A stretch of 64,000 nucleotides of DNA, taken from NCBI RefSeq assembly GCF_003334785.1, contig NZ_QOWV01000010.1; one strand, 5' to 3'. This DNA comes from Escherichia coli (GTDB taxonomy: Bacteria; Pseudomonadota; Gammaproteobacteria; Enterobacterales; Enterobacteriaceae). Of the stretch, positions 3,608-4,782 are shown piece after piece; positions within the stretch are counted from its first letter, which is position 1; each line of letters opens with the position of its first letter. The position numbers and the translations under genes were made by a program. The notes beneath the pieces were generated by a model. That model made no database searches. It was not told where the DNA came from and worked only from the letters and a program-made list of their open reading frames with translations.

Positions 3608-4782
3608 TTTGTGTGGTCCATAATATTTTTCATGGGAGGATAAATTGAGCCAGATGGAATGGCCCAGGGAGTGATTTTGCTTTCACCTACTAATATTCCC
3701 TTAGCTATTCGTGATTGCATGTTAGTAAAAACTTTATGATATGGTTCGTTTTCGATTAATACTAAATTTTCGAAATCATTAGTACCACCATCATCTAGAG
3801 ATAGTTTATGGTGAACATTATAATTTAGAGGAACATTGCCCTTTCTCATTCTTAAAAGGTCTTCGGCGTTGAATCTTCCAGATGCTTCGGAGGTTTTTGC
3901 AAGTTTGATAAGAAAATTTTTTCTTACAGTTTTATTAAACTCCTTTCGTAAGTTAGCTAAGTCTTTTGAAGGTCTCTTAATGTATATTATTTCTATTATG
4001 TCTATACCATCAAGAAGTTTTTGTTGACCTCTAAGTTTGCCTAAGTAACTATTTATTTCTGTATATGTATCAACATTAGAACGCTTTGTTAAAAGAATAG
4101 ATGCTGTTGCTATCGCTATGCCCGCTGTTTTTTCATTTAGTATTTGATCATAGCCTTTTATTGCATCTCCACCCAGTTTTTCCGCAGTATCTCTGAATCC
4201 TTCAATGTTCCCATTGTATACGCCACCAGCAGCAAGTAGCCTGCCAATAGCTTTGCTGTTTAACGTTTTGAAACGATTATTTGTTTGGTTTTTTGAATTT
4301 GGTAAAAACAAACGGTTATAATTTTCAGGGAGTGCCAAATAGCTGAACTCGGTATTTGCGATAAGATGTTGACAGAGGATAAATTCATAACTAATAGTTA
4401 TTGTTTCTGTATCCAGTTGGTTTTCAATGATCTGGTGATGAATAGCCGATAAAAAAGCGCCTCTTAGTTGTATATAATAATACTTTTCCAATCTACCAAA
4501 TCTATTTATTCGATAGAAGTCAAATCCCATAAATAATTGTTCATTATTGTTAATGGAATTAATAAATAATGGAGTGCTTTTATCAATTAATTTACAAAAT
4601 GTTATACCATGGAACTGTGAACCAAGCCCCGTATTATTAATATTATTTAAGAGTGAGAATGTAAATATTTCATCCTCATGCCCGCTCTGCCAACGATTAC
4701 CTGTAGACTCAGAAGTCCCACAACCTGCGGAGATGCTTCCTTGTTGTTCTCCCGTTACTGTCAGGTAAACAATATTACTCAT
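3604..4782 (-). CDS. yhhZ: Hcp (type VI secretion tube protein) with C-terminal extension carrying an HNH/beta-beta-alpha-Me nuclease motif (Hcp-ET type polymorphic toxin)
   Basis: 392 aa; N-terminal ~160 aa Hcp-like (MSNIVYLTVTGEQQGSISAGCGTSES...); C-terminal HH-x6-GG-x2-D-x2-N-x7-P-YH signature (NVHHKLSLDDGGTNDFENLVLIENEPYH); RBS AAGGA 9 nt upstream of ATG. Confidence 0.8.
   Translation of the reverse strand: MSNIVYLTVTGEQQGSISAGCGTSESTGNRWQSGHEDEIFTFSLLNNINNTGLGSQFHGITFCKLIDKSTPLFINSINNNEQLFMGFDFYRINRFGRLEKYYYIQLRGAFLSAIHHQIIENQLDTETITISYEFILCQHLIANTEFSYLALPENYNRLFLPNSKNQTNNRFKTLNSKAIGRLLAAGGVYNGNIEGFRDTAEKLGGDAIKGYDQILNEKTAGIAIATASILLTKRSNVDTYTEINSYLGKLRGQQKLLDGIDIIEIIYIKRPSKDLANLRKEFNKTVRKNFLIKLAKTSEASGRFNAEDLLRMRKGNVPLNYNVHHKLSLDDGGTNDFENLVLIENEPYHKVFTNMQSRIAKGILVGESKITPWAIPSGSIYPPMKNIMDHTK

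Follow-up and report, generated by a model that had tools for sequence, protein, structure and literature searches.

The HNH motif of the evolved Hcp toxin YhhZ of Escherichia coli: a very probable catalytic core with a predicted reversal of its histidine roles

A 64,000-nucleotide stretch of Escherichia coli DNA (contig NZ_QOWV01000010.1), hereafter the window, encodes a 392-residue protein in which a pair of histidines near the C-terminus is followed by an asparagine and a further histidine. What kind of nuclease, if any, does this motif belong to, and which histidine of the pair would act as the general base? The first-pass annotation described a canonical HNH motif of the colicin type and named the first His as the base. 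The analysis reported here indicates that the motif is very probably the catalytic core of a nuclease domain of the HNH (His-Me finger) kind at the C-terminus of YhhZ, an "evolved Hcp" of the Hcp-ET1 type, and that the roles of the paired histidines are predicted to be the other way round. Table 1 lists the features of the locus.

Table 1. Positions in the window of the features discussed in the text
Feature	Position	Strand	Basis
yhhZ CDS, 392 aa, Hcp-ET1-type "evolved Hcp" toxin	3604..4782	(-)	ORF listing, translation, YHHZ_ECOLI match
N-terminal Hcp/TssD tube-protein domain, residues 1-147	4342..4782	(-)	TIGR03344, Pfam T6SS_HCP, PDB matches
Helical pre-toxin/linker module, residues ~173-232	4087..4266	(-)	Conservation, AF2
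C-terminal toxin module, residues ~243-386: three-stranded sheet, long helix, HNH core	3625..4056	(-)	50%-identity representatives, AF2
Beta-beta-alpha-Me core, residues 321-360: beta1 YNVHH, beta2 LVLIE, helix YHKVFTNMQSRIA	3703..3822	(-)	
Reported HNH motif VHHKLSLDDGGTNDFENLVLIENEPYH	3736..3816	(-)	Residues 323-349 of the 392-aa protein; located by translation
H324, predicted metal ligand	codon 3811-3813	(-)	Invariant; aligned to first His of colicin-type HH pair
H325, predicted general base	codon 3808-3810	(-)	Invariant; aligned to second His of colicin-type HH pair
N339, "N" of H-N-H, just before beta2	3766..3768	(-)	Invariant; equivalent to ColE9 Asn118
H349, predicted metal ligand, last H of H-N-H	3736..3738	(-)	Invariant; helix N-terminus (AF2); equivalent to ColE9 His127
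yrhA, 164 aa, intact: predicted cognate immunity protein (ETi1), SUKH/Smi1-Knr4-like fold	3113..3607	(-)	Overlap with yhhZ, fold matches
yrhD small ORF, 51 aa (RefSeq)	2863..3018	(-)	Inside AT-rich islet; transferred RefSeq annotation, ORF listing
yrhB, 94 aa, Imm35-family orphan immunity-type gene	2379..2663	(-)	Islet edge; Pfam Imm35 PF15567 E=4.6e-23

The protein matches YhhZ of E. coli K-12 (YHHZ_ECOLI) with 100% identity and shares 391 of 392 residues with the protein encoded at the same yhhY-ggt locus of strain 55989. Its N-terminal domain scored 118 bits against NCBIfam TIGR03344 (cut-off 58.9), matched Pfam T6SS_HCP at 2.5e-11 and, among PDB sequences, matched Hcp3 (3he1, 2e-11) and the Hcp proteins 6a2v and 5mxn. 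The toxin module was modeled by AF2 with a pLDDT of ~90 or more over most of its length. An N-terminal Hcp/TssD domain (residues 1-147) joined to a C-terminal toxin extension (residues ~243-386) is the architecture that defines Hcp-ET proteins.

A protein of this description is known. YhhZ was recognized as an Hcp plus HNH protein in 2009 and placed in His-Me group 32 in 2017. Reviews describe Hcp-ET1 as a T6SS2-dependent DNase effector neutralized by ETi1 (PMC6730261, PMC6099711), and a preprint that names strains 55989 and C227-11 also gives it as a DNase neutralized by ETi1 (bioRxiv 2024.03.05.583533). The pair found here has the same protein, the same yhhY-ggt locus, the same downstream 164-residue gene and the same Hcp plus C-terminal HNH arrangement as Hcp-ET1/ETi1 (K-12 YhhZ/YrhA); there is essentially no difference, except that yrhA in the window, unlike that of K-12, does not contain IS1. 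Hcp-ET1/ETi1 of STEC004, O104:H4 C227-11 and E. coli 55989 was reportedly the subject of Ma et al. (2017, Virulence). From the strain names, the percent identities given in secondary sources and the identity of the locus, we infer that the Hcp-ET1 of those authors is the yhhZ locus. The YhhZ HNH toxin with its adjacent antidote gene is, then, already known, and since the motif marks the active site of a toxin already described, the finding is correct but ordinary. It confirms an existing annotation and its importance is small; what can be added concerns the catalytic map, the relationship to the colicin DNases and the modules that surround the active site.

The motif VHHKLSLDDGGTNDFENLVLIENEPYH occurs once in the window and is not expected by chance. 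The coordinates first assigned to it, 3736-3813, point to a motif that translation confirmed as real, but they cover residues 324-349 only and omit the leading Val codon. The proposed spacing, HH-x6-GG-x2-D-x2-N-x7-P-x-H, was matched exactly by the translated protein. For this strict pattern the number expected analytically in a six-frame translation of the window is ~9e-7, and it turned up in 0 of 200 block shuffles; a relaxed HNH pattern, expected 0.085 times, was found once, at the YhhZ motif site. Conservation of the residues is a stronger argument for the motif than these chance statistics. The likeness of the spacing to that of the colicins is approximate: the total span of 24 is equal, but the intervals differ by one residue, being 14 (HH-pair His to Asn) and 10 (Asn to His) in YhhZ and 15 (His103 to Asn118) and 9 (Asn118 to His127) in ColE9 (PMC2816704). 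The same one-residue shift was seen as a gap in the HMMER alignment.

In the AF2 model the region adopts the beta-beta-alpha-Me topology of a beta-hairpin with an alpha-helix after it, and the nearest solved folds to the model were those of pyocin and colicin DNases, Rhs2-CT and other HNH enzymes. Residues H324, H325, G333, N335, N339, H349, T353 and Q356 showed no variation in two alignments, one of 37 and one of 30 homologues. With few exceptions, the homologues among 146 newly listed 50%-identity representatives carry the block VHHK-PLDD-GTN---NL-LI---PYH, usually ~60-65 residues before the C-terminus in those inspected, and H325, the last residue of beta1, is kept in nearly all intact homologues among the 146. 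The Pfam HNH profile (PF01844) matched YhhZ alone weakly (E=0.013, 16 bits, 22 residues), and Blondel 2009 called the domain a "degenerate HNH" and did not link it to T6SS; "canonical" was thus too strong a word for it. Over the family the profile fared better, since all 30 members tested were matched at E<=0.1 and 11 of them at E<=1e-3 (best 4.7e-5). Tox-HNH, AHH, SHH, LHH, GH-E and WHH were absent from the listed Pfam matches, taken at E<=10 for the protein and at E<=0.1 for the family members scanned, and assignment to any of these dedicated families was rejected. The assignment to HNH holds; of the profiles named for comparison in the first-pass annotation, those of the colicin DNases failed and Tox-HNH was not among the listed matches.

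A profile built from the family retrieved from the PDB the HNH domain fused to Cas8f (4e-5), ColE7 (0.015) and Rhs2-CT (0.17). The best of these, from the type I-F HNH Cascade (8ydb, 8w1p), aligned over VHHxxPLxxGGxxxxxNxxxL..HH; its context, a CRISPR effector, is unrelated and the similarity is limited to the ~43-residue core. Similarity to the sequence of Serratia marcescens Rhs2-CT (9t38/8cm0), the HNH DNase of a T6SS Rhs protein, is marginal. Rhs2-CT lacks canonical helix-borne ligands, is carried by Rhs/PAAR and needs EF-Tu for entry, whereas YhhZ is carried by Hcp and is not known to depend on EF-Tu.

The roles of the paired histidines can be read from enzymes in which they have been characterized. 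The second His of the pair, His103 in ColE9 and His295 in HpyAV, is catalytic as determined by mutagenesis, and the first, His102 and His294, is a metal ligand (PMC2816704). In Rhs2, His1369 is catalytic (H1369A) and His1368 is a metal ligand, and a study of pyocin S8 gives further support for the roles of the HH pair. Because the second His is catalytic in every characterized homologous HH pair, H325 is predicted to be the general base, with H324 as a metal ligand; the position of H324 before the catalytic His is that of the Asp/His metal ligand in other HNH enzymes. The earlier choice of the first His as the base was probably reversed. For mutagenesis, the corrected map would have H325 as the base, H324 and H349 as metal ligands and N339 in a structural role, all predicted. 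By homology, H325 at the end of beta1 would activate the attacking water, H324 and H349 would bind a single divalent metal ion and N339 would brace the hairpin. The Hcp part is expected to enter, or accompany, the type VI secretion tube, so that the attached nuclease would be carried into a neighboring bacterium and degrade its DNA, while YrhA (ETi1) would shield the producer from YhhZ.

The gene yrhA lies directly downstream of yhhZ and overlaps its stop codon by 4 bp, an overlap through which it may be translationally coupled to yhhZ. Its product matches NF038335 (NCBIfam) and is identical at 162 of 164 positions to its counterpart at the yhhY-ggt locus of strain 55989. YrhA had no Pfam match even at E<=10, and its profile found only spurious antibody heavy-chain matches in the PDB. 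The AF2 model, of low confidence (pLDDT 58), matched SUKH/Smi1-Knr4 folds with YobK among the closest; the likeness to the immunity proteins of this group (B. subtilis YobK, Lin2918) is one of fold only, as no Pfam or PDB sequence match accompanies it. In a DUF8093 context, in which the toxin module has another N-terminus, it is likewise followed by a homologue of yrhA. Considered with this model, YrhA is predicted to be a cognate immunity protein with a SUKH-like fold.

The toxin-immunity pair is found within a 2.3-kb islet between yhhY and ggt that has a GC content of 31.6%, compared with 51.8% for the window, and that would represent a polymorphic-toxin cassette. The islet is listed among the H-NS-bound promoter islands. 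NCBIfam gave nothing useful for YrhB, and YrhD had no family match in NCBIfam or PADLOC. Neither YhhZ, YrhA, YrhB nor YrhD was matched by PADLOC, so none of them is a component of a defense system known to that tool. A scan for promoters and terminators between positions 2300 and 5100 produced counts that were not above those of shuffled sequences. From position 1 to ~61.2 kb the window is collinear with the annotated backbone of 55989, and no other T6SS gene was found in this compared part.

Three other readings of the domain itself were weighed against an HNH nuclease of the Hcp-ET1 type. One is that it is a true member of the colicin E7/E9 DNase family, with H324 as the general base, and we regard this as very unlikely. 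The colicin E7/E9 and pyocin S2/AP41 DNases (PF21431/PF12639) do share with YhhZ the beta-beta-alpha-Me fold, the HH pair that ends beta1, the Asn, the helix His and the lack of zinc-ribbon Cys residues. Pyocin and colicin DNases were also the best Foldseek matches in the PDB (77-82 aligned columns, 20-28% identity), and with the family profile the alignment to ColE7 and AP41 also took in the helices that precede the core. Against this, Col-Pyo_DNase reached only E=1.9 with the full protein and 0.37 with the domain, and at E<=0.1 it matched 1 of 30 family members and Colicin-DNase 2 of 30. The hairpin loop of YhhZ is one residue shorter and its N-to-H linker one longer, the domain is different in its N-terminal half, and the helix carries H349-K-V-F-T353 in place of the colicin HxxxH (ColE9 His127 and His131), with the invariant T353 where the fourth His would be. 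The 164-residue SUKH-like YrhA contrasts with the ~85-residue four-helix Im-type proteins that protect from colicins, and delivery, proposed to be by T6SS for YhhZ, is by receptor-mediated import in colicins and pyocins. As to H324, the second-His catalysis of ColE9, HpyAV and Rhs2 contradicts its use as the base. "Colicin-type" therefore does not hold as a statement of family membership, and the YhhZ domain forms an HNH clade of its own, apart from the colicin DNases and paired with a SUKH-like immunity protein. A His-Me finger RNase that cleaves rRNA or tRNA is also quite unlikely, if slightly less so. The fold leaves the substrate open, ColE7 and ColE9 have RNase activity in vitro, and the His-Me toxins YobL and YxiD of B. 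subtilis are reported to cleave rRNA. YobK, one of the closest folds to YrhA, is the partner of YobL in the yobL-yobK pair. However, there is no match to LHH or GH-E, the Pfam families of the RNase-type toxins, the relatives nearest in structure, namely pyocin S2, ColE7/E9 and Rhs2-CT, are DNases, and degradation of DNA is reported in reviews for the 99.7%-identical Hcp-ET1. The proposal that degradation of DNA is the most likely activity of the toxin agrees with what the reviews and the preprint state for this near-identical protein.

The third reading, that the HNH domain has decayed, leaving YhhZ as an orphan Hcp that is not toxic and whose motif has no catalytic role, is extremely unlikely. 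It would accommodate the "degenerate HNH" without a T6SS link of Blondel 2009, the lack of T6SS genes nearby and the position in an AT-rich islet among H-NS-bound promoter islands, and also the fact that K-12 tolerates yhhZ without an intact yrhA. But hundreds of 50%-identity representatives, with many different carriers, have all the catalytic positions unchanged; the immunity gene has been kept and varies together with the toxin module, and Hcp-ET1 is reported to be active. In K-12, yhhZ is intact and yrhA is truncated by IS1 (to residues ~1-130 of YrhA), while yrhA is uninterrupted in the window. The persistence of an intact toxin gene beside a truncated antidote gene is an oddity of K-12, and it suggests a gene that is either silent or no more than weakly toxic in the cytoplasm of the producer. 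A related explanation concerns function in this strain and not the nature of the motif: the toxin could be functional in principle and undeliverable or silent in this genome, which we consider a sizable possibility though short of likely. A T6SS may be absent from the strain, and yhhZ-yrhA may be an orphan cassette silenced by H-NS and serving mainly for immunity. Except for IS1, the flanks show 100% identity to genomes derived from K-12, E. coli B and K-12 laboratory strains have no T6SS genes according to a review, and the ~61 kb compared contain none; an intact yrhA together with yhhZ is, on the other hand, typical of T6SS2-positive strains such as 55989.

The toxin described here is not restricted to Hcp. 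The toxin module was matched in most of 646 50%-identity representatives, and it was located at or near the C-terminus in those inspected. Its carriers include Hcp, DUF8093, LXG (5), PT-TG (6), Tox-PAAR-like (3), PAAR, DUF4280, Rhs/prePAAR and WXG100; NCBIfam gave nothing useful on the long carriers. Judged from these sequences, the ~140-residue toxin is a mobile C-terminal polymorphic-toxin module on unrelated delivery domains, common to toxins of T6SS (Hcp, PAAR, Rhs) and T7SS (LXG).

Between the Hcp domain and the toxin of YhhZ lies a conserved module of ~60 residues, modeled by AF2 as four short helices (pLDDT 74-84), that holds the most hydrophobic segment of the protein. About 20 of its positions were invariant in the 37-homologue alignment, and its conservation exceeds that of the catalytic core. 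It is placed between carrier and toxin in Hcp-HNH proteins, in Hcp proteins with two other C-terminal domains, in DUF8093-HNH proteins and behind a third N-terminal type. The module had no Pfam match, a word-indexed search with 73 residues of it returned fragments only, and no description of it was found in the literature consulted on the toxin and its relatives. What is established for the module is its modularity and its conservation only. One possibility is that it serves in packaging, by folding the toxin into the lumen of Hcp. A role as an entry or translocation module that takes Hcp- and DUF8093-borne toxins acting in the cytoplasm across the inner membrane of the target would be rather unlikely on present analysis; such a role would parallel that of the cytoplasm-entry domains carried by CDI toxins, and also the entry of Rhs2-CT into the cell, which depends on EF-Tu.

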